Source: a virus. Taken from it: a DNA stretch of 64,000 nucleotides. Positions 9,161 through 61,114 of this stretch are shown here, in pieces (the stretch's first letter is position 1; every line of letters starts with the position of its first letter). A program made the translations under genes and the position numbers. The stretch lies in the IMG/VR virus record IMGVR_UViG_3300037245_003639. One strand, written 5' to 3'. The notes beneath the pieces are model-generated. The model had not been told where the DNA came from. It saw only the letters and a list, made by a program, of their open reading frames with translations, and searched no databases.

Positions 9161-9446
9161 GAAAAAAATCTGCCATGATGCCGACTTACTTTGACTGTCT
9201 GCGAGCTACCGCTCTTGCGTGCTTCCGTTACACCACACCACATAAACACAATATATGCGTCTCATGGATGGACGGATTCGAACCGCCATTTCCAAACCAT
9301 CAAGACGGCGACTACGGAATCGAATCGCAGGAAGTTGGCGCTGCTGTGTAGCCGACCGCATTGTCTGCCGACAATGGGCGGGGTGGCCCTTCCTGGCGAT
9401 ATCCGTCCAAGGCCCGCTCATGGCTTCGACGGGCAGCCGTGTCTCA
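9161..9446 (-). ncRNA. structured small RNA candidate 1 (tRNA-like T-arm module)
   Basis: Promoter 9453..9481 predicts a start near 9446. The transcript contains GGCGGTTCGAATCCGTCC, a T-arm-like hairpin. A 7-bp long-range helix TGGACGG/CCGTCCA (+ coordinates 9403-9409 and 9269-9275) encloses about 141 nt, and there is an internal hairpin CATTGTC-GGCA-GACAATG. It ends with GATTTTTTTC (+ coordinates 9161-9170). Confidence 0.4.
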
Positions 9447-17621: not shown

Positions 17622-18494
17622 TCAACTGGAAGGACCATCTCCCCAACGAAATTTCGTAACTAGGTTATGCCAACGGGGATAATGGGGATTCTGCATGATT
17701 AGAGCGCGTTTCCGAGCGCTCCGCACTTCAAGAATATCCTGTGCATCAAGGTTAAAAACGTCCTGCCCGTCAACGACAACATCTGTTCCTTCATTGACTC
17801 GGACTGCCTCGATACGGATTTGGCTGTCAGCATCCACCACGATCGGGCAACAGTCAAAGGAATGGGCGTTGAGGGGATTGAGGATGATTCCTGGCATTCC
17901 AGGCATCATTACGGGGCCATGAGCGGACAGATTGTACGCTGTAGAGCCTGTAGGTGTCGCCACAATAATGCCGTCCCCACCGACCGTAGCAAGCTCGATA
18001 CCGTCCACAATCAGCTTTAGATAGACCATACGATGCGGGGCGCCAGCGTTGATAACCACGTCATTCAGCGCCCACTGCCACGGTCTCCAATCGCCCAGCT
18101 TGCCTTGAATCCGCATTTGCAGCATAAGTCGCCGTATAATGTTCGCATCTGTGAGTTCTGGCAGTAACTCTTTCAATTCCGCGACTGAAAAAGCGGTCAG
18201 GAATCCGACCTTGCCGAAGTTGACACCAATCAGCGGAACCTGACGTTCTTCCAACTGGCGGGCCACTGACAACATGGTTCCATCACCACCCAGAACGACG
18301 ATGCGGTCTGCATTGTACTTTGGCAAATCGCCAATAGTGAACTTGGAACCCTCCCCAACGGAGTCTACACAGACGAGTTCTCCAACAGACTTTACCAAAG
18401 CCAGAATTTCTGGGAGAGCATCTTGAACTTCTTGCTTCATGAGATTAGAGACAATTGCATATTTCATAGAGTTGCACTCGTGGGATGTTGCCAA
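17622..18494 (-). CDS. nadK: NAD+ kinase
   Basis: GGDGTMLSVARQ, NDVVINAG and DGIIVATPTGSTAYNLSAHGP are the diagnostic NadK/PpnK motifs. Confidence 0.8.
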   Translation of the reverse strand: MATSHECNSMKYAIVSNLMKQEVQDALPEILALVKSVGELVCVDSVGEGSKFTIGDLPKYNADRIVVLGGDGTMLSVARQLEERQVPLIGVNFGKVGFLTAFSVAELKELLPELTDANIIRRLMLQMRIQGKLGDWRPWQWALNDVVINAGAPHRMVYLKLIVDGIELATVGGDGIIVATPTGSTAYNLSAHGPVMMPGMPGIILNPLNAHSFDCCPIVVDADSQIRIEAVRVNEGTDVVVDGQDVFNLDAQDILEVRSARKRALIMQNPHYPRWHNLVTKFRWGDGPSS

Positions 18495-23735: not shown

Positions 23736-25145
23736 TTAATCTTCGGACGTATCATCGTCCGACATTTTCACCAGTCGGGGATGGAAACAAGCGATAATGT
23801 CCACAAGGTCAGTCTGAGCGTCCATGACCTTCAAAATGTCTTTATACGCTCCTGGGACTTCATCCAATCCCGCGGAAATTAGTTTGACATTCCGGTGTCG
23901 TAATTGTTCTCGGACATCAGACCAGCGATACTTTTCCTTAGTTTTTGTTCTGCTCATCGCCCGCCCCGCACCATGCGATGCCGACGATAATGATGCAGCG
24001 TTACCTTTTCCCCGAACAAGAAAACCAGGCGTTGCCATTGAGCCCGGAATGACCCCTAGAACATCCACCCCAGCGGGAGTCGCCCCTTTGCGATGGACAA
24101 TCACAGTCCTGCCATCGTGTTCCTCTCGCCACGCAAAATTATGATGGTTCTCTACCTGTAGCAGAGCATCCCACCCCAATTCACGCAATACATGATAGTG
24201 AATCAGATTATGGTTTGCTGATGCATACTCTCCAGCGAGTTCCATCGCCTTCCAGTAAGCTATGCCATCTTCATCATCCATCGACAACCACGCCAGCCTT
24301 TTATACTGAGGCGGCAGCAAGGGATGTTTCGCTCCTGCAACACGGGTGAAGTGATTGGCCACCTTCGACCCAAGCCCGCGAGAACCGCTATGCGTCAAAA
24401 TGGCTACATACTTACCAGGAGGAACATCTCCAAATTGCTCAGTGAACTCTATTTCACCAACATCGAGGAAGTGATTCCCACTGCCTGATGAACCAAGCTG
24501 ATTCCACGCTCTGTCTTTATCCACAATCCCATCAAGGATAGACCAGTCCCGATCCATTACTTCGTGCTGGCGACGACCTGAACGTTGGAATGCGGCTCCC
24601 AGACCAAAGCGGGTATGCTTCTCGATTGCTTTCGTGATTACAGTTTCTTGCTGCTTGATGGGGTCTCCAGCCGTATCGATGGGGACCACAGATAGCATCA
24701 TGCGACATGCAATGTCTACGCCCACACCATAAGGCATGACAGCATTGTCCATAGCGAGCACGCCACCGATTGGCAAACCATAACCAAGGTGAGCGTCCGC
24801 ACATAAAGCCCCTCTTATCGCAGGCGGAATACTCAGAGCGCGGTTCATCTGATCGATGGTATTTTCATCGATGAAGTCTTTGCCCCAAATGGCTAAGGGC
24901 TTATCTTCGCGGAATGTATACAGTTCTTCTGGGTGGAGAATATTGTACCATAAAGACGCCGCTTCGCCAAAGTGCGCATCGCTTCGTAAAGATGCTGGGT
25001 TGCTAAACAACTCGCGAGCAATCTTCTTGCGAGTTTCAGCACCAACTCCTGCTGTCTTCGCGGATTCCTCGGCTTTCAGCAAAACACCAATCACTGGCCC
25101 TTGCTTGAAGCCAATATTGAGCAATCCTCGTGCCTTGAGTCCCAT
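23736..25145 (-). CDS. rtcB: RtcB-family RNA ligase
   Basis: Diagnostic ENHHNFAW motif, the HNLIHYH stretch, and overall length and composition consistent with 3-phosphate/5-OH RNA ligase. Confidence 0.8.
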   Translation of the reverse strand: MGLKARGLLNIGFKQGPVIGVLLKAEESAKTAGVGAETRKKIARELFSNPASLRSDAHFGEAASLWYNILHPEELYTFREDKPLAIWGKDFIDENTIDQMNRALSIPPAIRGALCADAHLGYGLPIGGVLAMDNAVMPYGVGVDIACRMMLSVVPIDTAGDPIKQQETVITKAIEKHTRFGLGAAFQRSGRRQHEVMDRDWSILDGIVDKDRAWNQLGSSGSGNHFLDVGEIEFTEQFGDVPPGKYVAILTHSGSRGLGSKVANHFTRVAGAKHPLLPPQYKRLAWLSMDDEDGIAYWKAMELAGEYASANHNLIHYHVLRELGWDALLQVENHHNFAWREEHDGRTVIVHRKGATPAGVDVLGVIPGSMATPGFLVRGKGNAASLSSASHGAGRAMSRTKTKEKYRWSDVREQLRHRNVKLISAGLDEVPGAYKDILKVMDAQTDLVDIIACFHPRLVKMSDDDTSED

Positions 25146-26607: not shown

Positions 26608-28128
26608 CTAACGTCTATACACTCCTAACAACGCAGCCAAGTCCGAAAGGTCTACGTCTCCATCAAAGTCAAAGTCTCCCTCGGCTGGCGTCGTATCCCC
26701 GGTCTCTCTGTAGTGGCTGAGGAGTGCGGCGAGGTCAGAGAGATCTACATCCCCATCTCCATCCATATCACCAGGACGATGCGAAGCGTATTCATCGGCA
26801 CCCATGTCCACCAGCCAGCCAGACCCGCCATCCCAAACGCGCAATTGACCGTCCATATCACGCTCATAGAGTGAGTACAGAACATCAGGATCGCCGGTAT
26901 CAATACAGGGAGAACCTGACAACAGATGCCCCTCGCTGCCCAGTAGAGGGTCGAGAGCGATAGAAGTATCGTGGTCCCAAAGAAGCACGCCGCCCGGGGT
27001 GATAAAAACCCCATACCAGCCATATTCGACATCAGAATATGAGACTGTGACGGTGCCGGAACTGCTAATGGCTATTTCCGCCCCCTCATTTGCTGTATCT
27101 CCCCATAAAATCGAATTCACTAGATAAACATCGCCGCGGTAGTCGCAGTGGACGCCGCCGCCACGATCGAAAGCCGTGTTCCCCGTGATCGTGCAGTTGG
27201 TGATGGTTATGTCGGAGTAGTAGTCGCAGTGCGCCCCACCGCCGCCGTCGTCAGCCGTATTCCCACTGATTGTGCAGTTGGTCAGCGTCGCGCTGCTGTT
27301 TTCACTGCAATGGACGCCGGCGCCGGACCCGCCCATGTTGTCGCTGATCGTGCAGTTGGTCAGCGTCGCGCTGGAGGAGTAATAACAGCTAATGCCGCCG
27401 CCGAAGGAGCTTGCCGTGTTCCCCGAGATCGTGCAGTTGGTAATCACCGAGCTGGAGTCGCGGCAGTAGATGCCCCCGCCGTAGCCGTCTGCCGTGTTGT
27501 CGTTGATCGTACAGTTTGTGAGCGTGGGGCTGCCGATCCGACAGTAGACGCCGCCGCCGTAGACTGCCGTGTTGTCGTTGATTGTGCAATTTGTAATGGT
27601 CGGACTGGAGGAGTCGTTGCAATAGACGCCGCCGCCGTTTGTGCTTGCCGTGTTCCCAATTATTATGCAGTTTATAATAACCGGGCTGGATGAGTTGATG
27701 CAGCGGATACCACCGCCATAATCGCTAACCTGCCCATTAGTAATAGAAAATCCATTCACCACGGAATCAGGCCCTTCACCAAACCTGAAATAGAACCCCC
27801 TGCCATCACCTTCGCAATCGATGACGCAATTAGCAGCTCCGTTCTCGGAGCGCACCGTGACCGCCTTACCGCCAAAGTCCAGGTTTTTGTTGAAAAGCCC
27901 CGTATAACGCCCATTGGCCACCAGAACAGTATCGCCATCTTGACAAAGGAAGATAGCTTCCTGAATAGCATCGAACGGATGCTCGACAGAACCATCCTCC
28001 AGTGGGTCACTAACCATCGGATCGCCGGGACCGGGGTCACTGGGTGCATTGTCATCAACATACCAAGTGGTTTGGCTCCAGGCAGGAGCAATAACGAATA
28101 ACAAAACCGAAAGAGTGAGATATCTCAT
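26608..28128 (-). CDS. secreted parallel beta-helix repeat protein with C-terminal dockerin
   Basis: Signal peptide, NCTI(S/N)(G/D)NTA beta-helix repeats, and C-terminal DMDGDGDVDLSDLAALL plus DFDFDGDVDLSDLAALL (type-I dockerin Ca-binding repeats). Confidence 0.7.
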   Translation of the reverse strand: MRYLTLSVLLFVIAPAWSQTTWYVDDNAPSDPGPGDPMVSDPLEDGSVEHPFDAIQEAIFLCQDGDTVLVANGRYTGLFNKNLDFGGKAVTVRSENGAANCVIDCEGDGRGFYFRFGEGPDSVVNGFSITNGQVSDYGGGIRCINSSSPVIINCIIIGNTASTNGGGVYCNDSSSPTITNCTINDNTAVYGGGVYCRIGSPTLTNCTINDNTADGYGGGIYCRDSSSVITNCTISGNTASSFGGGISCYYSSSATLTNCTISDNMGGSGAGVHCSENSSATLTNCTISGNTADDGGGGAHCDYYSDITITNCTITGNTAFDRGGGVHCDYRGDVYLVNSILWGDTANEGAEIAISSSGTVTVSYSDVEYGWYGVFITPGGVLLWDHDTSIALDPLLGSEGHLLSGSPCIDTGDPDVLYSLYERDMDGQLRVWDGGSGWLVDMGADEYASHRPGDMDGDGDVDLSDLAALLSHYRETGDTTPAEGDFDFDGDVDLSDLAALLGVYRR

Positions 28129-30312: not shown

Positions 30313-31257
30313 TTATCCAAAAAAGTCATCGGCGTGGATGAATTGGAATCCGCATCGAGAGGCGAAGGTGCGATCTGTCGTCTGATCCCCCACCATTATT
30401 GAGTCACTCGGGGACAGGTTATGTTTCATAATGAACTGGACGCCCAATCCGCTCATTGGTTTGCGACAGTAGCAGTTGATGGGAGCAGGGTTATGAGGAC
30501 AGTAGGCATACTCAATGTCTACCTGGAGCTTCCTATTCGTAATATCAAAGCAAGCTCTAGCTTGCTCATCAGTTGGGCTCCCCTTGGCCACTCCGCTCTG
30601 GTTGCTGACGCCGAGTAAGGCGTAGCCCTCTTTTTCATACTTACGCAGGACAGCCGCCCGCCCTGGAAGAACCACAACTTGCTTCGGGTCTGTAGGCCAC
30701 TTCAACTCTGCCCCATTAGTATCTTCGCTTACCCGGAGAGTGCCATCGTAGTCCAAGATGATAGCGGCGTTCGTCCACTTTGCGGGAAAGCCCCGCATAA
30801 ACGGTCGCCTGTCAACTCGATGGAAGCCCTCAGCTACAGTGGGCGCCTGGAACTGCTTGCGGTAATTGAACAACACAGCAGTGGGAAACATATTTGGGCT
30901 GGAATGCTTTTTGATTTCCTCAGGCATCAACAGTCTGCCTTCACGCTCGATCATCCGCACGCAAGCGTTGAATTGAGCGTCTTCGATGGTGGCTGTGAGC
31001 CAGTCACAAATGACTGTAACATCGAATTTTTTGGCAGCCTCAAGGAAGGGTTTGCGGCTCTCGACTGTAGGGAAGGTGTTGTCGAGAACAACGTCTTTGC
31101 CCGCTTTGAGAGCGGCCACCATCTTGGGAACCAAATCAGCTACTTTGCCCCCGGCCTTATCTCGATTGAGATAGACAAAACCCTGCTCTGTATAGGCCGA
31201 GGCGATTGAGGACTTACCCGCAGCGGGATAGCCCATTACCATAACGACTCGTGGCAT
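30313..31257 (-). CDS. pnkp: T4-type polynucleotide 5-kinase / 3-phosphatase
   Basis: N-terminal P-loop GYPAAGKSS (kinase) and C-terminal ILDYDGTL (the DxDGT HAD-phosphatase motif), in the same order as T4 Pnk. Confidence 0.7.
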   Translation of the reverse strand: MPRVVMVMGYPAAGKSSIASAYTEQGFVYLNRDKAGGKVADLVPKMVAALKAGKDVVLDNTFPTVESRKPFLEAAKKFDVTVICDWLTATIEDAQFNACVRMIEREGRLLMPEEIKKHSSPNMFPTAVLFNYRKQFQAPTVAEGFHRVDRRPFMRGFPAKWTNAAIILDYDGTLRVSEDTNGAELKWPTDPKQVVVLPGRAAVLRKYEKEGYALLGVSNQSGVAKGSPTDEQARACFDITNRKLQVDIEYAYCPHNPAPINCYCRKPMSGLGVQFIMKHNLSPSDSIMVGDQTTDRTFASRCGFQFIHADDFFG

Positions 31258-31264
31258 CAGATTC

Positions 31265-31489
31265 TCACGTTGCAAAGTAGATGACGACAGTAACGACAGT
31301 AATCAAAGCAGCTAGTCGAACGTAGATGCGGGCTTCCATGCCATTCACGCCATTCACGCCATTCACGACTTCCGCTCGCAGTTTCTCGTAACAATCCGGA
31401 CTAATGTCGCCGTTGGCAAGAGCTTCGGCAAAATGCACCGTGTGGCCCGGTGACTGTATCGTCTCCGCAATCAGCTTCTGGCTGTCCAT
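31265..31489 (-). CDS. hypothetical protein
   Basis: 74 aa with a C-terminal TM segment. Confidence 0.35.
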   Translation of the reverse strand: MDSQKLIAETIQSPGHTVHFAEALANGDISPDCYEKLRAEVVNGVNGVNGMEARIYVRLAALITVVTVVIYFAT

Positions 31490-31890
31490 CAGTCTTCCTT
31501 TGAGGCTTTCACGATACGAGGCATGGTTTGGTCTGGAACTTTGTAGAAAGCGACGTAATACTTCTTGTCTTCTACCATGCTGTTGTAGAGTTCCAGGTCT
31601 GTGGTTTCTTCTGAGCCTTCACAGAGCCAAGTCTTTTGTTTGTCATCTACGACGAAGAATTGTTCCTTGTGCTCTCTCTTCTCGGCGATGGTAATGAAAC
31701 AACGCTGTAGATTCTGCTGGGCTTCCTCAACTTGTTCGAGTTCTCTTGCTCGATTGATAGAAGGGATGAGGATTGAAGCACAGAGCGCGACAATAGCCAC
31801 CACCACGATGAGTTCGAGTAGCGTGAAGCCTTTAGTCGGGATAGAGCTTTTGGCGTGCCTCATTGAGTTTCTCCGATACGAACTCAGCAA
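31489..31890 (-). CDS. prepilin-type (type IV pilin or pseudopilin-like) protein
   Basis: KGFTLLELIVVVAIVALCASILIP is the classic prepilin N-terminal cleavage and methylation segment. Confidence 0.6.
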   Translation of the reverse strand: MLSSYRRNSMRHAKSSIPTKGFTLLELIVVVAIVALCASILIPSINRARELEQVEEAQQNLQRCFITIAEKREHKEQFFVVDDKQKTWLCEGSEETTDLELYNSMVEDKKYYVAFYKVPDQTMPRIVKASKED

Positions 31891-32059
31891 GCAGACTGCC
31901 TTCTACATCTCCGTCGTAGAATTTGGCCAACAGTGCGTCATCCCCTGGCTCGTCCTCAGTTTCTGGGACGCCATCTCGTTCTAAAAGCTCCCAGCATTCG
32001 TCCTCGTGATTACAGCGGAAATACAGTTTGCGAACATCGTAGGTTTCTTGAAGTTTCAT
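31832..32059 (-). CDS. small acidic hypothetical protein
   Basis: 75-aa ORF. Confidence 0.35.
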   Translation of the reverse strand: MKLQETYDVRKLYFRCNHEDECWELLERDGVPETEDEPGDDALLAKFYDGDVEGSLLAEFVSEKLNEARQKLYPD

Positions 32060-32098
32060 TCTCGCCCTCAGTGATGGATGAATTCCTCGGGCGGAATG

Positions 32099-32184
32099 AA
32101 AAAAATCAACGTGGGAGATATGTTCCCGGCTACACCACCGACCCTATGGATCGAGCAGGATTCGAACCCGCCATCTTCTCCCAC
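32099..32184 (-). ncRNA. tRNA-like small RNA candidate 2 (74-nt cloverleaf-like core plus U-tract)
   Basis: Promoter 32191..32219 puts the start exactly at GTGGGAG. The RNA forms a 7-bp terminal helix GTGGGAG/CTCCCAC enclosing three hairpins, the first being GCGGG-TTCGAAT-CCTGC (a T-arm consensus), and ends in GTTGATTTTTTTC. It shares the motifs ATGGCGG(G)TTCGAATCC, GGTGTA(A/G)C(C)GG and GATTTTTTTC with candidate 1. Confidence 0.5.
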
Positions 32185-32190
32185 ATTTCT

Positions 32191-32219
32191 ATCATACCAT
32201 ATGTACCTGAGACTGTCAA
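32191..32219 (-). promoter_or_regulatory. sigma70-type promoter (TTGACA-17-TATGAT) driving the tRNA-like RNA
   Basis: ccTTGACAgtctcaggtacatatggTATGAT. Confidence 0.65.
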
Positions 32220-34011: not shown

Positions 34012-34494
34012 TCATGGTTGCTCGTCATCAGACTTAGTTTTCCTGCCGGGCAGATGTGCTTTTAACGCATTCAAGGCTCCACGAGCGCCGCCTCGAATCC
34101 CGGCTCCCACGCCAGCAAGATTTGCGGCTCGCCGTTCGACAGTAAGATCGTCGCTTGTATATTCTTCTCCATCAGGCCCCCAAGACCGAACTTCAACGGT
34201 CTCCATTCCTCCACCACGAGAATACAAGGCCACAAGACTGTTACCCCACGGGTCTATCTCAGGCAGAATATGCTTTGGCTCATCATTGTCTGGTCGCTTG
34301 TAAACGCCAGCATCTGTTGTCTGGCTATCCAGATTGGCTGCCCATTTCGTGCAGAGATTCTTGGCGGTCTCAATTTGCGCAGCGTTCTTCGCGGCGTTCT
34401 CGTTCATCTTCCAAATTGCAGCGCAGCCAAAGACAAGAATCACAAGGACTGTGACCCCTAGAGCAGCGTAATGTTTGTTCCCGTCTTTGTTCAT
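34012..34494 (-). CDS. membrane-anchored GspG-like (pseudopilin-domain) protein
   Basis: A signal-anchor, then PEIDPWGNSL and SWGPDGEEY, which resemble the DPWGN and SxGxDG motifs of type II secretion pseudopilin GspG. Confidence 0.4.
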   Translation of the reverse strand: MNKDGNKHYAALGVTVLVILVFGCAAIWKMNENAAKNAAQIETAKNLCTKWAANLDSQTTDAGVYKRPDNDEPKHILPEIDPWGNSLVALYSRGGGMETVEVRSWGPDGEEYTSDDLTVERRAANLAGVGAGIRGGARGALNALKAHLPGRKTKSDDEQP

Positions 34495-34591
34495 CCTTAA
34501 TCCTCTAAAGCTTTGGACCAACTTGCCCTAAACGTATTCCCTTCGGGCAACATCTGATCTCGGGTATGGTGATACAGTTCTTTCCTTCTGG

Positions 34592-37801: not shown

Positions 37802-38818
37802 TTACACGCCGATGGGGTCTGTGGAATTGACCAATTTCACGCCCAATTGTTCCAGTTCGGCAAGCCGAGCGTTGGCCATCTTATCAAACTCAATCTTGCT
37901 GCCATCAGGCAGGTCGATATCGGCCACACTGCTCATACAGTCTTGCAGAACGTGTAGCTTCTCCAGCAGGTGATTCTTTCCTTGATGCTGAAAAAGAGCA
38001 ACGACTTGGTTCAGCGTCTCGATGACGCAGTGCGATTTGGCCTGACCTGCAAAATAGACGCGATCGGCCTCTTCCCACTTGGCCAGAACTCTTGTATTGA
38101 GCCGAGTTTGCGGGTCTTCGGGAAACTCTACTTCGGCTTGCAGGACGCCGTAGTTCTCCGATAATGCCGACATTCCCTTTGTGGTCGCATCATATTGATT
38201 CGACCGAGCCGAGGAGTGAAACATAAGAGCCTCGGCGAAAGCCGGATCGAAGGCATGGCCGGGCGTGCCAAGTATGCAATGGATAGGCCAGATACAAAGG
38301 TTCTTTTTCGACTGTTGTTCGAGCTTATCGAGATACTGTTGCATCTTGACCGGATGACGCACTGGACGCCATACATCGTCCCGAACATCCTTGGCCGTAA
38401 TGATGGTAAAGGGGTCGGGATGCTCGTTCTGCTGATACACTACTCCGTTCGGCCGCGTCGTCGGCTTCGTCCCAGCAATCCAATTGAAGCGATGAAAAGG
38501 CTGGTACAGGAAATGTGAATCCAGCGAGCCAAGAACGTGAGAAATTCTGCCCACGTTCTCATACATGAAACGGCAGAGACGGTCGGTGTCTGCTACCGCC
38601 CCAGGGACCGGCAGGGCTCCCTCGGGATGAACAAAATCGACTTGGCAGTCGATCACTGACAGAATGATACCACCATCTTCATCATTCTGCCACTTTTGGC
38701 ATTTCTTGACGCCATGCTGCGCAGCAAAAGCGGCACCATCTGTAGCTGCCCGATCCAATTCGGGAAGTCGAAGAGTACCGCATCGGGATGCGTCATGCCA
38801 GGATGGAACGTTACTCAT
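37802..38818 (-). CDS. isochorismatase/nicotinamidase-family cysteine hydrolase (long form)
   Basis: ILSVIDCQVDF (compare LLVIDMQNDF) and AGQAKSHCV (the catalytic Cys motif GxxxxxCV). Confidence 0.55.
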   Translation of the reverse strand: MSNVPSWHDASRCGTLRLPELDRAATDGAAFAAQHGVKKCQKWQNDEDGGIILSVIDCQVDFVHPEGALPVPGAVADTDRLCRFMYENVGRISHVLGSLDSHFLYQPFHRFNWIAGTKPTTRPNGVVYQQNEHPDPFTIITAKDVRDDVWRPVRHPVKMQQYLDKLEQQSKKNLCIWPIHCILGTPGHAFDPAFAEALMFHSSARSNQYDATTKGMSALSENYGVLQAEVEFPEDPQTRLNTRVLAKWEEADRVYFAGQAKSHCVIETLNQVVALFQHQGKNHLLEKLHVLQDCMSSVADIDLPDGSKIEFDKMANARLAELEQLGVKLVNSTDPIGV

Positions 38819-42989: not shown

Positions 42990-43475
42990 TCATTTCCAAT
43001 TTGGAGGGATAAAAGAAAACAGTCTATTTCGACGCATTGGATGCTGCAAACTCCTAATGGCCTTGGCCTCAATTATCCGAACGGTCTCTTTAGACAGCCT
43101 GAACATCTCGCCTATTTCTCGTAAATTATGCGAGGAGCCACCGATGCCATATCGCAGCCTGATCACTTTTTGCTGCCTATATGTCAAGGTGCTGACCAGC
43201 TTGTCTATTATTTCTTTTAGTTCAGACGCGCAAATAGGGTCAACGGTATGATCATCAACAGCGAGGTGTTCAGCCGTTAATGCTCGCTGCATCAAACATT
43301 TGCTAGGGTCCAAGTCTTCGGGCCTACAGTCGCATAAGGCAGATATTTTGTTCAGAGTTTCTATCCCTACCGATAGCCGACCAGTTTCGATGCCATTCCA
43401 AGTCCCTAAAGCCGTTCCAGAAAGCAAAGCAGCGCAAGCTTGACTTAAGTTATAGTCCAAACGGAACGAAACCAT
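42990..43475 (-). CDS. XRE-type HTH fused to a sigma-70 region 4 domain
   Basis: N-terminal LSQACAALLSGTALGTWNGIETG...IETLNKISALC...PEDL (Cro/C1-type HTH). C-terminal LTYRQQKVIRLRYGIG...HNLREIGEMFRLSKETVRIIEAKAIRSLQHP (classic region 4.2). Confidence 0.6.
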   Translation of the reverse strand: MVSFRLDYNLSQACAALLSGTALGTWNGIETGRLSVGIETLNKISALCDCRPEDLDPSKCLMQRALTAEHLAVDDHTVDPICASELKEIIDKLVSTLTYRQQKVIRLRYGIGGSSHNLREIGEMFRLSKETVRIIEAKAIRSLQHPMRRNRLFSFIPPNWK

Positions 43476-43492
43476 GATTTTGTTCCGCGAAC

Positions 43493-44509
43493 TCATAAGA
43501 GCATCAAGGGCATCTCGCCCACCATGACTTCGAACTCGAAGCCTTCTTCCACAAAATTAGGATCACCTACCCACACCGGATGGATATAGCGCCGTGGAAC
43601 TTTGTTCATGTGGACCAAACGAATACGATCTGTGGGTCGCTCGGGCAAGAACATCCTATTGACGGGCGGAATGCCTTTTAGCCACAGATGCCGAATATGA
43701 CCATGCCGGAAATGAGAAGCATGAGGCTGCCCCTCATCGGACTTGCCATTGAGAACATGATACAACCGCTCATGCGGAATCACGCTGAAAATTGCTTTAT
43801 CGCGAGTAAGTCTCTTGATTTCCCCCGTGGGACCAAACCCTTTCTTGGGCTTACTGCGAAGCATGTAATGGCAAGGAATGGCAAGGTTTGCCAAGTAAGC
43901 CAGAAAATCCGCCGCCAATCCAGGTTTAGGCTGTTTGGACTCCTGTTCGAAAGCCACCCACGCAGAACAGCCTTTCTGAACCAAAACCCTACTGAGATAG
44001 TCTCGGTATCGCTCGGGAGTGGTTTCCGCTCCAATGCTTTTGCAGACTTCTTCCAGAATTGCGATGGTTTTGTTTTTCGATACATTAGGGTTTTTATCAT
44101 CGAAACGGTCAGGGTCGAGATGTTCTAACCAGTGGAGCGCAGGTTTAGTATGAACCAACCTGCCGTCAATCAGCATTACGGCTCCCACATAAACCAACTC
44201 CGAACTGTCAGGTCGAGCAAGCAAAACTTTCAGGTTCTTACTGTAGACCATCCAGACGAGGCTGCGAACTGTCTCATCTTTGCATATTAATGAGGCAGCT
44301 ACGTCTTCGGCCAAAATCACGCAAGCATCATCTGGCCAAGGAATCTGCTCGATTGCTTGAAGAGATTGCACTCCGAGCCCCACTCGTTCCACGTCGCCAT
44401 CGAAGGCAAAGTAATAGACTGGCAGTGGCTTTGCAAATTGGGTGCGGGGATTCCGATAGATCGTAATCAAGGCCTCTCGAATCAGCCGTTGCCAAATCTT
44501 ACCGATCAT
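43493..44509 (-). CDS. hypothetical protein (338 aa)
   Basis: Long ORF, no confident motif. Confidence 0.45.
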   Translation of the reverse strand: MIGKIWQRLIREALITIYRNPRTQFAKPLPVYYFAFDGDVERVGLGVQSLQAIEQIPWPDDACVILAEDVAASLICKDETVRSLVWMVYSKNLKVLLARPDSSELVYVGAVMLIDGRLVHTKPALHWLEHLDPDRFDDKNPNVSKNKTIAILEEVCKSIGAETTPERYRDYLSRVLVQKGCSAWVAFEQESKQPKPGLAADFLAYLANLAIPCHYMLRSKPKKGFGPTGEIKRLTRDKAIFSVIPHERLYHVLNGKSDEGQPHASHFRHGHIRHLWLKGIPPVNRMFLPERPTDRIRLVHMNKVPRRYIHPVWVGDPNFVEEGFEFEVMVGEMPLMLL

Positions 44510-47164: not shown

Positions 47165-49861
47165 TTAGATCAACGGTTCTTCAGGCCCAGGCCCAGACAC
47201 TGGCATACCTGGATGAAGCGTCGGCCCAGGCCCTTGCTCTGCTATCGGAATGCCAACATTACGTGGATTACGAACAACCTGGCGCAATTGCTCCCAGAGT
47301 TCCTCGTCATCTTCATCCCAATCACCATCATCCTCTTCCATTTGATTGAAACCAAGCTTTATTCTGTCTTGGAACTCATTGCGATGACGATCAAAGAGTC
47401 TAAAAGTGCGTCCGGTATCAAGTTTTTTGTGACTAATGATGTCCAAAGCAAACAATTTGCGAATTTCTTCCATTTCCGCGAAAGTATAATCTTTTGTGCG
47501 TTCGGTCAGATCGCTTATATCCAAAACGCTCAACATGTCCTGTTGGAACCTCTCTGTAATAAACTGCGTCCGTAGTTTCTCTCCCGGGGCAGAGAATGGC
47601 AGCCACAGGTCAATACGCCCTGGACGCACAAACGCTTCATCCAATTCAACCATTTCGTTGGCAGTAAAAACGAAGACGATTCCTTCGGTCGGATAGATAC
47701 CATCCATGTTCGTCAGGAAGGGCAGAATCTCATAGTTGCCTGTCTTCCGATCTTTGATCATTACATCCAAATCATCAAAGAAGACAATAGCCGAACGATT
47801 GCGGGGCGGCGTGAATAACTGCCGAACTGAACCATGCCGTCTGACATCTTCATATTCTTCAAGCGTTATTACTCGATGGTAGAATCCATGTTCAATGGCC
47901 AGATTTCGCAGCCATTTGCAAGTCATCGTGTTATGATTTATAAAGCCACCCGCAGCGAAGGAGTGAGATTCTGGCACATAGAAGTCTGCGACAAAGTTCT
48001 GCGCAGAAACGTTGCTTTTGACCTGATCCCAGAAAATATCACCGCGAGCAATATTCCGCATTCTCGCAAGAACTTCTTTCCCAATTTTAGTTTCATCTAC
48101 AAGTTGAAGAAGGCGTTCAGACTTTCCATGAGACATTCTCTGAGTTCCGTCCTTGTATCTCTGGAACTCAGCGTGCATTCGACGATTGAAATTGCCACTT
48201 AATTTACATACATCTCTGAGCAAATCTGGATCATAGGGCACAATATCATAATTAGTGTTATACTTTTTCTCCTGGAATCTGATTTGTTTCCGTGCCACGC
48301 GGAATCCGATTTCGTCGAAGAAGCATTTAGCCTCCTTGCCATTTATATCTATAGCCCAAGCACCGTTATAATCATTGGGCTTATGACGCAATGATGAGAT
48401 AATACCAAAGTTGGTGAGCATCAGATGGACTGTTCGAGCTAACTCCTCAGAGTAGGAGTCAAAACCAACTCGACCCGTTGTATCTGCCCACCCGTCAGTA
48501 TCAAACAACCCCTGCAAAAACGCTCTTACACAGTCTTGCGGAGCCTCCAAAATACAACGTGGAACAGATTTTTGACATGCTCCCGCAGAACCAAGACCCA
48601 GGAGTTTGAGGAATCCTTTGATCTGAACGCTTTCAATGGTCACCGAAGTCAACCCATCGCGTCGTTTATCATCCTGCACATGAGGAGTTACCGAGAAGAG
48701 TCTGGAGAATAAAGCCACATATTCTCTCTCTAAGTCCGCCGTGGAGAATGCGATTCTGTTCTTGGTAGTTAAATTACCATCACCAGTAAGTAACCCCAGA
48801 AGATATGCGAGATCATCATCGAGAACAGATGGCAAGGAAACAGGGAGCCTACCAGAAGCCGTATGAGCATACGAGATATCTGTTTTGTACCCGAACAACA
48901 TCATCTTACGAGGAACAGCTACAAAATCGCCCTCTTCAATCTCGTCTAGCCTTTTCCATGTAATATCCTGTCCATCTGTTACAATGACGCGATGATTCCA
49001 CGTTCCTTCAAGTTGATAGCCAAAACGAGTGCTTATCTTTTTAGTGTCTCGCCATCCGCCATTGTAAATTTGGGCAGTTTCTTCTCGATGGCCATCTTTA
49101 TTCCATATAGTTACTGACTTGTCTGTGGCGTCATCAACTGCAAGATCTTCTATAAACTCGCCAATAGGCAGCAACCCGCTATTTGTAAATACAGGAGTAT
49201 CAAGAGAACAGCACTTTCCACATCCGGGTTTTCCGCACAACAAGGCTCCCCGTTTGTAAGGAATGTTGTACTTATCGTATTGGGCCTTCTTCTCTTTACC
49301 ATCCACTAGAAAACCAATAGTGTTTTTGTAAATATCAGTCAACATTCCACGAGGCAGGACAGGTGGTTCCAAGTTAGTAGCAGAGTGCTTCTCAATCTTC
49401 CTGGCGAATTTACGTAGACTAAAAAGGTTCCGTTTCTCCACAAATATGGAGAAACTAAGGGGATGATCGTCGAATTCACCGTTCCAATGCCAAAAACGAA
49501 CGGAATCACGTTCTCTTTGTGGACGGTTACGCTGATCAGGATTGAAGATAACGTATTCCCGCAACCCTACATCATAGCGGTCATACCATGAGCCATCATG
49601 TAATGCTGCCTGGGTTTGAACTATAAGTTTACCTTTTCCCTGGTCCTTTTTAGGCAACATTCCCATGGGCATGTCAATAGCGACAGGAATTCGCCTGATA
49701 TGTTTGACATCACGGGTTTCTTTAGAATTAGTAAGCTTGAGGCTTGCAGAAAATCTGCACATACAAAGGTCATCTTGTGAGAAGTCATATTCATCACAAA
49801 GGGCCTTAACAGCATATGCAAAAACAGCTTCGGGGTACTCAGGTTCAAAAACCATATTCAA
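47165..49861 (-). CDS. AAA+ ATPase (classic-clade type) interrupted by an intein
   Basis: The Walker A motif GKPGCGK|C...HN|T is split. The second region of homology is FTANEMVELDEAFVRPGRIDL. Acidic C-terminus. Confidence 0.7.
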   Translation of the reverse strand: MNMVFEPEYPEAVFAYAVKALCDEYDFSQDDLCMCRFSASLKLTNSKETRDVKHIRRIPVAIDMPMGMLPKKDQGKGKLIVQTQAALHDGSWYDRYDVGLREYVIFNPDQRNRPQRERDSVRFWHWNGEFDDHPLSFSIFVEKRNLFSLRKFARKIEKHSATNLEPPVLPRGMLTDIYKNTIGFLVDGKEKKAQYDKYNIPYKRGALLCGKPGCGKCCSLDTPVFTNSGLLPIGEFIEDLAVDDATDKSVTIWNKDGHREETAQIYNGGWRDTKKISTRFGYQLEGTWNHRVIVTDGQDITWKRLDEIEEGDFVAVPRKMMLFGYKTDISYAHTASGRLPVSLPSVLDDDLAYLLGLLTGDGNLTTKNRIAFSTADLEREYVALFSRLFSVTPHVQDDKRRDGLTSVTIESVQIKGFLKLLGLGSAGACQKSVPRCILEAPQDCVRAFLQGLFDTDGWADTTGRVGFDSYSEELARTVHLMLTNFGIISSLRHKPNDYNGAWAIDINGKEAKCFFDEIGFRVARKQIRFQEKKYNTNYDIVPYDPDLLRDVCKLSGNFNRRMHAEFQRYKDGTQRMSHGKSERLLQLVDETKIGKEVLARMRNIARGDIFWDQVKSNVSAQNFVADFYVPESHSFAAGGFINHNTMTCKWLRNLAIEHGFYHRVITLEEYEDVRRHGSVRQLFTPPRNRSAIVFFDDLDVMIKDRKTGNYEILPFLTNMDGIYPTEGIVFVFTANEMVELDEAFVRPGRIDLWLPFSAPGEKLRTQFITERFQQDMLSVLDISDLTERTKDYTFAEMEEIRKLFALDIISHKKLDTGRTFRLFDRHRNEFQDRIKLGFNQMEEDDGDWDEDDEELWEQLRQVVRNPRNVGIPIAEQGPGPTLHPGMPVSGPGPEEPLI
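47930..49213 (-). mobile_element. intein (about 428 aa) with a LAGLIDADG homing-endonuclease domain, inserted in the P-loop of the AAA+ ATPase
   Basis: It starts at Cys217 (CSLDTPV) and ends FINHN followed by Thr. It carries two LAGLIDADG motifs (LLGLLTGDGNL and LQGLFDTDGWA). Excising it restores GKPGCGKT. Confidence 0.65.
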
Positions 49862-59457: not shown

Positions 59458-59486
59458 TTGACAATCTTCCGAAAACTTGGTAATCT
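59458..59486 (+). promoter_or_regulatory. sigma70-type promoter (TTGACA-17-TAATCT)
   Basis: ggcTTGACAatcttccgaaaacttggTAATCT, then ggagatcctgcATG. Confidence 0.6.
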
Positions 59487-59512
59487 TCCGTAGTGTCAAT
59501 CGGAGATCCTGC

Positions 59513-61114
59513 ATGGCTACCAAACTTGGCAGAAAAGCGTATCCATCTGGCGTCAGCCCAGGCGATTTTGAGTGCTTTGGCCCAGTTGCTACAAAAGATG
59601 GTGAATTCGACGACGCCCGGCTCGCTGACCTGGGATGTTTCAACCAGGAAGGCGTAGATTCCAACAAATATTACCATGGGTCCATATGTAAAGCGAATGG
59701 CAAGTGGTATGTATACTTCCAGTGGGGACGGACGGGAGGCACGGGTGATTTCCAGTTCTTCGAGTGCTATGATGAGCATGATGCTCAGGAACAGTTCACC
59801 AAACAACTACGCTCGAAGAATGATAAACGGGGTGAATGGGTGATGAAAGGGGGACTCGGCAAAGTCCTCCGGGCCAAGCCCAATAAAGACTGCTATTTGG
59901 TTCGCCCGCTGGCTACCCGAGACGATACCAGCCCTGGATTGCCAGGAGCAATTGCTGTTACCACAGGTGACGTGAAGGTTAAGAAGACCGTCAAGAAAAC
60001 ATCGAAGAAGAAAACGAAAACTCCGTCTCGCACTTTCGATGCTGAAACGATCAGTCTCATGCGAGCAATGAATGTTGCTGCCGTCCAGTTTACAAAGAAA
60101 AGCATCCAAGGCGGCACCATTCCCACGCAAGCGTCTATCGAGGAAGCCCGAACGGTTCTTATCGAAGCCCAAAAACGGCTGGTCGTTGTAGGCGACAACG
60201 TAAAATCCCAAATCGCTGATACAGAGCTTCGCCAGTTGACCTATCACCTGTACGGCAGGGTTCCCAAAATCAAGCGGGTAGGAGCCCCCGAGAGCGAGTG
60301 GATTCTAAGCCAGGATAACATCTTTACTTGGACCGCTGACTTGGATGCGTTCGAAAACGCTCTGGCCGTTGCTACAGTCGAAATCGAGGAAACCCAAACT
60401 GACAAAGACCCGCTCGGTGGGATGAAGATCGACATGCGGCACCTGCCTCTCGGTGACAAGCAAGGTGATTTCATCCGTAAATGGATGCCTGACGCTTCGC
60501 TTGACCGCCATTCGTGGGTTGGGGACATGAAGATCAAACATGTTTGGGAAGTCACTCGCCACGATGACCCCAAACGATTTGCTGGAGCTATTGACCGAAT
60601 CACTAAGGGGCGAGTGGACACAAGGCATAAGCCAATCAAACAGCCCCGAAAGCGAATCGACTTGGACACTCAGGAAGCCAAGCGTTACGAGGCTGCCAAT
60701 GTCGGAATGCTTTTCCACGGCACTCGTAGCGTCAACGTCCCGGGCATCCTGCGCACAGGATTGCGTTTACCCAACCAACTTGTTGGCGTCGTCATTACAG
60801 GAGCCATGTTTGGCCCTGGTATTTATTGGGCTGACGACTGGAAGAAGAGTGCGGGATACACGAGCCTCAGTGGTTCATACTGGAGTTCTGGCAGCGGCGG
60901 GGTGCGCGGTCGCAAAGCATTTATGTTCGTGGCCGACGTTGCACTTGGGACTGCCCACGTAGCAAACGGATACCGTGGTTATACGGCGGCGCCAAGGGGC
61001 TGTCACTGTGTTTTCGGGAAAGCGGGTAGTAGCGGAGTTGCAAATAACGAGTGGATCGTCTATACTAACGAGCAAAATCGTCTTCGCTATCTCGTGGAGT
61101 TTGATGCCAAATAG
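59513..61114 (+). CDS. WGR-domain poly(ADP-ribose) polymerase-like protein
   Basis: WGR motif WYVYFQWGRTGGTG. The catalytic core LFHGTRSVNVPGILRTGLRLP...AMFGPGIYWADDWKKSAGY...NEWIVY parallels the PARP1 H-G-S / GKGIYFAD / YNEYIVY triad. Confidence 0.75.
   Translation: MATKLGRKAYPSGVSPGDFECFGPVATKDGEFDDARLADLGCFNQEGVDSNKYYHGSICKANGKWYVYFQWGRTGGTGDFQFFECYDEHDAQEQFTKQLRSKNDKRGEWVMKGGLGKVLRAKPNKDCYLVRPLATRDDTSPGLPGAIAVTTGDVKVKKTVKKTSKKKTKTPSRTFDAETISLMRAMNVAAVQFTKKSIQGGTIPTQASIEEARTVLIEAQKRLVVVGDNVKSQIADTELRQLTYHLYGRVPKIKRVGAPESEWILSQDNIFTWTADLDAFENALAVATVEIEETQTDKDPLGGMKIDMRHLPLGDKQGDFIRKWMPDASLDRHSWVGDMKIKHVWEVTRHDDPKRFAGAIDRITKGRVDTRHKPIKQPRKRIDLDTQEAKRYEAANVGMLFHGTRSVNVPGILRTGLRLPNQLVGVVITGAMFGPGIYWADDWKKSAGYTSLSGSYWSSGSGGVRGRKAFMFVADVALGTAHVANGYRGYTAAPRGCHCVFGKAGSSGVANNEWIVYTNEQNRLRYLVEFDAK

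Follow-up and report, generated by a model that had tools for sequence, protein, structure and literature searches.

The stretch of DNA considered here, termed the window, spans 64,000 nucleotides of the virus record IMGVR_UViG_3300037245_003639. Its minus strand carries the whole of a small element (positions 32099-32219) with the core of an RNA (32111-32184) that resembles a transfer RNA (tRNA) and stands ahead of genes for RNA repair. The locus raises the question of what an RNA with the arms of a tRNA is when it cannot serve as one, and what it would do beside a polynucleotide kinase-phosphatase (Pnkp) and the RNA ligase RtcB. Judged from its sequence, the core holds all four helices of a tRNA cloverleaf, complete but circularly permuted. 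The tRNA body appears competent to form the L-shape, the anticodon loop is absent, and the acceptor end is sealed.

From 5′ to 3′, the core runs through a closing helix, a variable region, the T-arm, a capped acceptor-like hairpin, U8-G9, the D-arm, A26, and the 3′ strand of the closing helix. The closing helix (GUGGGAGA with UCUCCCAC) had been taken for a 7-base-pair acceptor-like stem in a preliminary description of the locus; the helix is present, but it has 8 base pairs and corresponds to an extended anticodon stem with open ends and no loop. The same description placed a textbook T-stem-loop in the D-arm position. The T-arm is indeed textbook, and it occupies its normal place within the rotated cloverleaf. 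The D-stem, reported as missing, is found as GUGU-AGCCGGGA-ACAU, and its loop holds A14, G15, G18G19, and A21; A14, R15 (a purine), G18G19, and A21 occur in all members of the family described below. The acceptor-like hairpin is closed by a 3-nucleotide loop instead of NCCA, which leaves no free CCA end.

Canonical tRNA features are otherwise lacking, in line with the earlier view that there is no 7-nucleotide anticodon loop and that the RNA is non-canonical. ARAGORN makes no call on the element and finds zero tRNA or transfer-messenger RNA (tmRNA) genes in the 64-kb window, and the tRNA model RF00005 does not match the element even at E <= 10. The outcome changes when the permutation is reversed. 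Each member was cut at the cap, rejoined through an artificial 7-nucleotide anticodon loop, and given ACCA, and ARAGORN then calls a canonical tRNA for 7/7 re-permuted members with the D-arm accepted. The tRNA mimic suggested earlier is thereby borne out as a topology. The “tRNA-Ala” label of the re-permuted calls is no evidence of isotype because the anticodon was inserted artificially. Assignment of an isotype from the D-arm sequence was dropped, as an identical D-arm is found in phage tRNA-Ala, tRNA-Gln, and tRNA-Trp. An anticodon-like loop formed from the 3′ tail was also rejected, the tail sequence not being conserved.

The fold is upheld by comparison with relatives. The exact 75-residue protein encoded downstream led to three contigs with identical RNA, and diverged loci were found through homologues of this protein and of an upstream 182-residue protein. 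Seven distinct RNA sequences from metagenomic relatives were obtained, those of the window and of loci L004, L006, L007, L028, L031, and L035, and a family covariance model was built from three members. With this model the window element reaches 95-97 bits and the six diverged homologues 70-96 bits, and RNAalifold recovers the identical four helices. In the model-based alignment of the seven sequences, 98.2% of cells hold standard pairs vs 93.8% in shuffles, a value that 0/500 shuffles reach, and pairing falls to 42-58% when the 3′ partners are slid. Both-sided changes occur at six pairs, three of the eight in the closing helix, two in the T-stem, and one in the acceptor-like stem. Acceptor pair 5:68 covaries, being C-G in five members and U-A in two. 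For four of five covariation measures, no more than 1/500 shuffles attain the observed value; for the remaining one, further pair types, 23/500 do. By these comparative measures, the element is a conserved structured RNA beyond chance.

The conserved positions extend to those of the tRNA tertiary core. U8, A14, G18G19, and the T-loop UUCGA(A/G)U are invariant across the seven members. Positions 15:48 covary, with G:G in the window and L004 and A:U in the other five, as expected for a Levitt tertiary pair. Mean pairwise identity is 80% in the RNA core vs 66% in the DNA of the adjacent gene. Single-base indels in the variable region, cap loop, and D-loop exclude coding on both strands, which agrees with the earlier statement that the RNA has no open reading frame (ORF). 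A candidate frame within the RNA (AUG at 32172-32174, minus strand) was set aside, its start codon not being conserved.

The order of T-arm, acceptor 3′ strand, acceptor 5′ strand, and D-arm is also that of a junction between tandem tRNA genes, and such junctions give weak matches to the family model. The element might on these grounds be a non-functional remnant, either a decayed tandem junction or an attP-type tRNA fragment. This explanation is disfavoured and hardly credible. Tandem-tRNA junctions, the expected false positive, reach at most 37.5 bits vs 70-97 for the family, compensatory changes uphold the four helices, and the 8-base-pair closing helix bears no trace of an anticodon loop. 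The window is without tRNA genes, a dedicated promoter is conserved, and so is the position at the head of a repair cassette. A fragment of a host tRNA gene or attP remnant had been raised in the preliminary description as well, and no covariance model scores the element so.

Beyond this family, relatives are scarce in the collections searched. GenBank phages yielded none by 5-kb megablast, tblastn with the 75-residue protein, or blastn with the RNA, which returned only T-arm-level matches to tRNAs. Scans of IMG/VR with the flanking proteins and RNA patterns found no relatives, and a loose RNA pattern there gave tandem tRNA genes only. A pattern scan of metagenomes returned one already known member and a tRNA array, and no match came from representative genomes of bacteria and archaea. 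Within the window, a second, weak family-model match lies at 9215-9295 on the minus strand (20.4 bits, E ~0.005). It comprises a T-arm (GGCGG-UUCGAAU-CCGUC), 31 nucleotides, a D-arm-like GUGUAACGGAAGCAC, and a downstream GAUUUUUUUC as after the main RNA. Its fold is unconvincing (z = -1.2), and the region of 8.8-9.65 kb is without a convincing ORF; the match may be a decayed paralogue or a chance one.

The promoter proposed at the RNA start, TTGACA-17-TATGAT, is present on the minus strand. The site matches 11/12 consensus positions plus the TG of an extended -10; a scan of 5 kb turned up just one other site of 11/12. The 17-nucleotide spacer between the -35 and -10 hexamers ends in TGG, and TATGAT is followed by AGAAAU and then by GUGGGAGA. 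The spacing with TTGACA and either TATGAT or TATAAT is kept in 5/7 distinct sequences (window, L006, L007, L028, and L035). L031 has a close variant, TTGATG-17-TATAAT, with a 12-13-nucleotide leader, and the promoter region of L004 holds the -10 (TATAAT) only. The distance from the -10 to the RNA is constant among the homologues, L031 excepted. To judge by this conservation, the element has its own strong sigma-70-type promoter-like site. Transcription is predicted to start 6-7 nucleotides past the -10, on the G with which the closing helix opens; in most members the predicted start coincides with the first bases of that helix. The 5′ end of the RNA is accordingly predicted to be base-paired.

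The known RNA that the element resembles is YrlA (Y RNA-like A; PDB 6CU1), a tRNA-mimicking Y RNA found in bacteria and in some phages. With permissive thresholds, YrlA (RF02553) is the best match in the window and in five relatives and the sole Rfam family matched; the window element scores 26.2 bits and its relatives 24-30.8 bits, against a gathering score of 69 bits. No family reaches its gathering threshold in the 64-kb window. A match to the AdoCbl riboswitch (24 bits, gathering score 50) was rejected as spurious, reflecting the multi-helix shape of the region. In the Rfam alignment, the T, acceptor-like, and D arms of the element are in register with those of YrlA, the inner 4-base-pair stem is deleted, and the outer, Rsr-binding stem of the model falls on an unpaired stretch that shares positions with the -10 hexamer.

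YrlA RNAs are laid out as a T-arm, an acceptor-like hairpin with a closed loop, and a D-arm, with no anticodon loop; they also have a Ro/Rsr-binding module with the motif GNCGAAN0-1G and adjoin rsr (Chen et al. 2014, PMC4201824; Wang et al. 2018, 10.1101/312249). The element shares the rotated layout in full: a closing stem equivalent to the anticodon stem, the variable region, the T-arm, the closed acceptor-like hairpin, U8-N9, and the D-arm. The tertiary nucleotides and the Levitt pair are kept in both, and both have neither an anticodon loop nor a free CCA end. The YrlA T-stem consensus GCGGG/CCCGC is found in L004 and L006, and the other members differ from it by wobble or compensatory changes. 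The acceptor-like stem has 7 base pairs as in Mycobacterium smegmatis YrlA, and operons with RtcB are common to both.

There are also differences. The RNA is ~74 nucleotides long vs ~110-150 for YrlA and is without the Ro/Rsr-binding module and the outer stem. Its D-stem is GUGU/ACAY, not the conserved GCUC/GAGC; positions 8-9 are UG in 6/7 members vs UA; and pair 3:70 is G:U in 6/7 members where the YrlA consensus has C-G. It has its own sigma-70 promoter-like site with the start predicted at the closing helix, and its partners are an acidic orphan protein of 72-78 residues and Pnkp. Taken together, the element shares the tRNA-like architecture of YrlA and departs from YrlA in three defining features: the Ro-binding module, adjacency to Ro, and the gathering score.

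These likenesses and differences bear on whether the element is a genuine YrlA Y RNA that tethers Rsr to an effector, with Ro60/Rsr encoded elsewhere in the ~403-kb genome or by the host. YrlA is linked to RtcB in many bacteria, in rsr-yrlA-rtcBA operons, some jumbo phages encode TROVE proteins, and phage YrlAs beside Ro genes are known (PMC4201824; PMC7824862). A positive control comes from Gordonia phage Boopy, which encodes a Ro-like protein and has a YrlA-like element 1.15 kb downstream of that gene. This element scores 52.1 bits with the Rfam model and 32 bits on the family model, a level that tandem-tRNA junctions also reach on the first family model. It lies at 5980-6079 of L043 (MK894436, record positions 88691-88790) where the record has a tRNA-Leu overlapping with a tRNA-Gln; this label is probably a mis-annotation of a Y RNA-like RNA. 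A genuine Y RNA at the present locus is nonetheless quite unlikely. The motif GNCGAAN0-1G is absent within 150 nucleotides upstream and inside the RNA in 7/7 members, the would-be Rsr-binding outer stem is the unpaired stretch on the -10 hexamer, and the D-stem sequence of YrlA is missing. Published YrlAs adjoin rsr, and here neither TROVE (Ro/Rsr) nor Band_7 domains are found by Pfam in 50 window ORFs or listed in the precomputed Pfam annotation of the relatives' called genes. The 338-residue ORF and a VWA protein at 36.6-38.8 kb were considered as a split or divergent Ro60 and rejected, since TROVE gives no signal in them and they match no Ro structure in the PDB.

The permuted tRNA considered earlier is upheld as a topology but not as a gene of the algal type. 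In the permuted tRNA genes of the Cyanidioschyzon merolae type, the acceptor linker is processed, the ends are joined, and the anticodon loop is restored; two-piece, permuted tmRNA genes carry a tag ORF. As in these genes, the T-arm and acceptor 3′ strand, which make up the 3′ half, come upstream of the 5′ half with its acceptor 5′ strand and D-arm. The element differs in that its termini form a continuous 8-base-pair helix, with no anticodon loop, and in that no processable linker exists: the cap is a non-conserved loop of 3-6 nucleotides (3-4 in the model alignment), with CC in L006 only. Neither ARAGORN nor the Rfam tmRNA models detect a tmRNA signal in the element, and it has no tag ORF.

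A related alternative is that RNase P cuts the RNA in the acceptor cap and that trimming and CCA addition then yield a two-piece, anticodon-less molecule, recognised or charged by alanyl-tRNA synthetase through G3:U70. The G3:U70 wobble is present in the acceptor-like stem of 6/7 members, and L028 has G2:U71. This wobble is an identity element of alanyl-tRNA synthetase. The 7-base-pair acceptor-like stem stacked on the 5-base-pair T-stem has the geometry of an RNase P substrate, and Chen et al. (2014) linked that arrangement to the cleavage of M. smegmatis YrlA by RNase P (PMC4201824). Such a precursor is very improbable, given that pair 1:72 is a mismatch in two members, L006 and L007, that the cap loop has no more than 3-6 nucleotides and is not conserved, with CC in L006 only, and that there is neither tag ORF nor tmRNA signal. 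In the window, A is the cap base that takes the discriminator position.

One further comparison is with b7a-tRNA (Band-7-associated; Burroughs and Aravind 2016, by its description in 10.1101/312249), a predicted tRNA-like noncoding RNA that is also linked to RtcB, does not need Ro, and has been proposed to act in RNA ligation or repair. It is described there as strongly like an authentic tRNA and as lying beside a Band-7 protein. The element differs in its permuted cloverleaf, its capped acceptor, and the absence of a Band_7 domain among the scanned window ORFs.

The preliminary description presented a discrete 74-nucleotide RNA ended by a U7 tract, and this part is not supported. The closing helix is followed by GUUGA and U7 (32110-32099, minus strand), and a U-rich run follows it in 7/7 members with variable length and offset. 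The U7 itself is not conserved, the relatives having UAUUUC (L006), CUAUUUUAUUU, GCUUUUUU, and UUUUUAAUUUU. In fold predictions, the tract pairs with the Shine-Dalgarno (SD) sequence and AUG of the next ORF: U7 and CAUUCCGCCC find their predicted partner in GGGCGAGAAUGAAA. The helix is part of the RNAalifold consensus of five homologues and recurs in single-sequence folds of the window, L006, L007, and L031, with z = -3.0 to -3.8. The AUG is also paired in L035, and in L028 an SD-sequestering helix is not evident. A competing local hairpin (AUUCC-GCCCGA-GGAAU) is possible in the spacer. To judge from these models, the helix resembles an element that controls translation of the cassette's first gene. 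A 5-kb scan for promoters and terminators found neither a promoter-like site nor a terminator between the RNA and the ORF. Given the variable U-tract and its predicted pairing with the SD and AUG, the RNA probably serves as 5′ module of a longer operon transcript, the first part of a message that would continue into the small acidic ORF and the Pnkp/RtcB genes. Release of an RNA of ~80-90 nucleotides, through partial termination at the U-rich tract or through processing, is possible.

From this 3′ region arises the alternative that the RNA is a cis-acting leader, a tRNA-like operator that heads the mRNA of the repair operon and controls the SD/AUG-hiding helix or simply stabilises the 5′ end. 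RtcB, Pnkp, RNase P, or a host factor could be its binder or cleaver. The thrS operator, which mimics tRNA-Thr, acts in a comparable mode. In most members transcription is predicted to start on the base that opens the closing helix, which fits a leader, as do the predicted SD/AUG pairing, the absence of a conserved terminator, and the lack of a promoter-like site ahead of the ORF. Stabilisation of the 5′ end would need only a simple hairpin, and the retention of the tertiary core with a covarying Levitt pair argues for recognition as a tRNA shape. The L004 RNA precedes a different gene, and L028 is without an evident sequestering helix. As the sole role of the RNA, a leader is possible if rather unlikely; action in cis and action in trans after processing are compatible.

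The nearness of RtcB and Pnkp genes noted earlier is real and is conserved in the relatives. The coordinates of the element and of the adjoining genes are collected in Table 1.

Table 1. Coordinates of the RNA element, its promoter-like site, its predicted 3′ pairing, and associated genes (window positions unless a locus is named).
Feature	Position	Strand	Remarks
-35 hexamer TTGACA	32214-32219	-	Same in L006, L007, L028, and L035 despite differing spacer sequences
Extended -10, TGG TATGAT	32191-32199 (hexamer 32191-32196)	-	TATGAT or TATAAT in all 7 homologues
Closing helix, 5′ strand GUGGGAGA	32177-32184	-	8 base pairs with 32111-32118; matches 3′ strand of tRNA anticodon stem
Variable-region equivalent AGAUG (positions 44-48)	32172-32176	-	4-5 nucleotides in every member
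T-arm GCGGG-UUCGAAU-CCUGC (positions 49-65)	32155-32171	-	5-base-pair stem, paired 100%
Acceptor-stem equivalent UCGAUCC-AUA-GGGUCGG (66-72 with 1-7)	32138-32154	-	7 base pairs, triloop AUA cap
U8-G9, D-arm GUGU-AGCCGGGA-ACAU, A26	32119-32137 (D-arm 32120-32135)	-	4-base-pair D-stem, 8-nucleotide D-loop
Closing helix, 3′ strand UCUCCCAC	32111-32118	-	Partner of GUGGGAGA
Spacer between RNA core and 75-residue ORF	32057-32110	-	U7 and CAUUCCGCCC (~32089-32102) predicted paired with SD/AUG
SD and AUG of next ORF, GGGCGAGAAUGAAA	32054-32067	-	Predicted partner of U-tract and CAUUCCGCCC
SD/AUG helix	32054-32105; L006 759-812; L007 2181-2236; L031 263-324	- (window)	Predicted by folding
75-residue acidic orphan protein	31832-32059	-	Motifs ECWELLER, DALLAKFYDG
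Pnkp-like polynucleotide kinase-phosphatase	30313-31275	-	Pfam AAA_33 and PNK3P; NCBIfam PNK-3'Pase, HAD-IIIA
RtcB RNA ligase	23736-25145	-	Pfam RtcB, E = 3.9e-78
ATP-dependent ligase-like gene, upstream of RNA	34842-35477		

Genes are almost all on the minus strand over ~15-52 kb of the window. Past the RNA come the acidic protein, a pilin-like N_methyl protein, a 74-residue ORF, and Pnkp (composed of a P-loop kinase and a HAD 3′-phosphatase), with RtcB ~7 kb further on. Other loci differ in order. In L006, the RNA is followed by ORFs of 75, 112, and 57 residues, Pnkp, and RtcB; in L007 by 75 residues, a pilin-like protein, and Pnkp; in L028 by 78 residues, RtcB, and Pnkp; in L031 by 72 residues and Pnkp; and in L035 by 77 residues and RtcB. 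The RNA and small ORF lie ahead of Pnkp and/or RtcB in all six loci with downstream sequence. Other genes are reordered among the loci, and the RNA and small ORF nonetheless stay at the head of the Pnkp/RtcB cassette.

The acidic orphan protein (72-78 residues) is the immediate downstream neighbour of the RNA in 6/7 members; in L004 there is none and a different gene follows. The orphan family (P0005-P0011) spans 62-78 residues with the motifs ECWE[LI]LER and DALLAKFYDG. The 75-residue protein has no Pfam, NCBIfam, PHROG, or PDB match, and its AlphaFold model is of low confidence, with a predicted local distance difference test (pLDDT) score of 54, too poor for a fold search. A distant member of the orphan family, in a smaller phage with terminase and portal genes (L036), has no RNA adjoining. 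Pnkp homologues at ~50-60% identity occur on contigs of 280-584 kb; one such contig is labelled as a Promethearchaeota metagenome-assembled genome and may be a mis-binned huge phage.

Phages are known to counter tRNA-targeting defences. T4 Pnkp and Rnl1 counter the PrrC anticodon nuclease, and phage-encoded tRNAs offset defences that target tRNA. The present locus is like these tRNA-repair cassettes in its clustered Pnkp, RtcB, and ATP-dependent ligase-like genes and in having a tRNA-shaped RNA component; it differs in that the known systems consist of proteins only or of real, decodable tRNAs. The literature searched yielded no tRNA mimic, non-decoding and capped, that heads a repair cassette. 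More specifically, it yielded no Ro-less, promoter-driven, minimal YrlA-type mimic ahead of a cassette of small protein, Pnkp, and RtcB.

The reading that we prefer is that the RNA is a Ro-independent, YrlA-type tRNA mimic acting as decoy or partner in tRNA damage and repair, and we would give this whole statement a probability of roughly 0.55. The RNA would be transcribed from its own sigma-70-type promoter with its 5′ end inside the closing helix. It would form a stable ligand in the shape of a tRNA, with no anticodon loop to be cut in, no means of being aminoacylated, and both ends protected, and it would work alongside Pnkp and RtcB against host nucleases that cleave tRNA. Its most likely role would be that of a competitive decoy for nucleases that recognise the tRNA body; alternatively, it may serve as a platform or partner for the repair enzymes. 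Both roles have been put forward for related RNAs. Hughes et al. (2020) found that an anticodon nuclease leaves YrlA's tRNA-like domain uncut and proposed a competitive-inhibitor role (PMC7790460), and Burroughs and Aravind (2016), as cited in 10.1101/312249, proposed tRNA-like RNAs as partners of RtcB in ligation.

Several points weigh against this decoy or partner reading, in which the function is much less certain than the structure. PrrC-type nucleases read the anticodon loop, which is absent here, so that the RNA could be a decoy only for enzymes that recognise the tRNA body. An RNA cofactor is not known to be required by RtcB. In three huge phages whose Pnkp is more distant, at ~55-57% identity (L037, L040, and L042), the RNA is missing within 10 kb of that gene; the RNA is therefore not a general requirement for these enzymes. 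The window is 64 kb of a contig recorded at 403,172 bp for its proteins, and a Ro gene may lie elsewhere on it. The matches to YrlA stand far below the gathering score, and the element may descend from a truncated YrlA or may have arisen independently by tandem tRNA duplication. The comparison itself draws on only seven distinct sequences from one narrow clade, counted in an alignment fitted to the model, and the D-stem is paired 100% with changes that are one-sided only.

A bolder statement would make the RNA the Ro60-free component of a counter-defence unit together with the 75-residue acidic protein, Pnkp, and RtcB, in which it acts as an uncleavable competitive inhibitor of host nucleases that target tRNA or as a platform shaped like a broken tRNA that recruits or regulates Pnkp and RtcB. 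This is offered tentatively, as a possibility well short of an expectation. In its more extreme version, RNase P would open the 7-base-pair acceptor hairpin and alanyl-tRNA synthetase would recognise the G3:U70 stem.

Other genes of the window touch on defence and on the nature of the genome. A protein with WGR and PARP catalytic domains (59477-61114, plus strand) and a NAD kinase (17622-18494, minus strand) are related to nicotinamide adenine dinucleotide (NAD), and a 338-residue protein (37802-38818, minus strand) has faint nicotinamidase similarity only. The NAD-related and RNA-repair genes suggest a region of the genome rich in counter-defence functions. An AAA ATPase gene (47165-49861, minus strand) is split by an intein with a LAGLIDADG homing endonuclease domain. 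Two pilin-like proteins are encoded on the minus strand (31489-31890 and 34012-34521), one with an N-terminal methylation motif and the other with a weak, sub-threshold match to type II secretion system protein G. The same strand encodes a beta-helix protein with a dockerin domain (26608-28128) and a small protein with sigma-70 region 4 (42990-43496). By annotation, the pilin-like, dockerin, and sigma-70 region 4 genes would be unusual cargo for a phage-like genome.

The ligand of YrlA's tRNA-like domain, and the reason that tRNA-like RNAs travel with RtcB, have been open questions since 2014-2016. The element is not categorically new, but it separates the tRNA-like module from Ro60. A rotated fold with no Ro-binding half, no Ro gene found nearby, and a link to RtcB/Pnkp that survives rearrangements argues for an independent role of the module in tRNA damage and repair. 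Such elements escape tRNA finders and fall under Rfam thresholds, and the Boopy counterpart carries a tRNA-Leu label. Should the RNA turn out to draw tRNA-cleaving defence nucleases away as a decoy, phages would have an RNA-based anti-defence factor of a type that the literature searched does not describe. The 74-nucleotide RNA, the 75-residue protein, Pnkp, and RtcB make a minimal four-part system in which this is testable in Escherichia coli.

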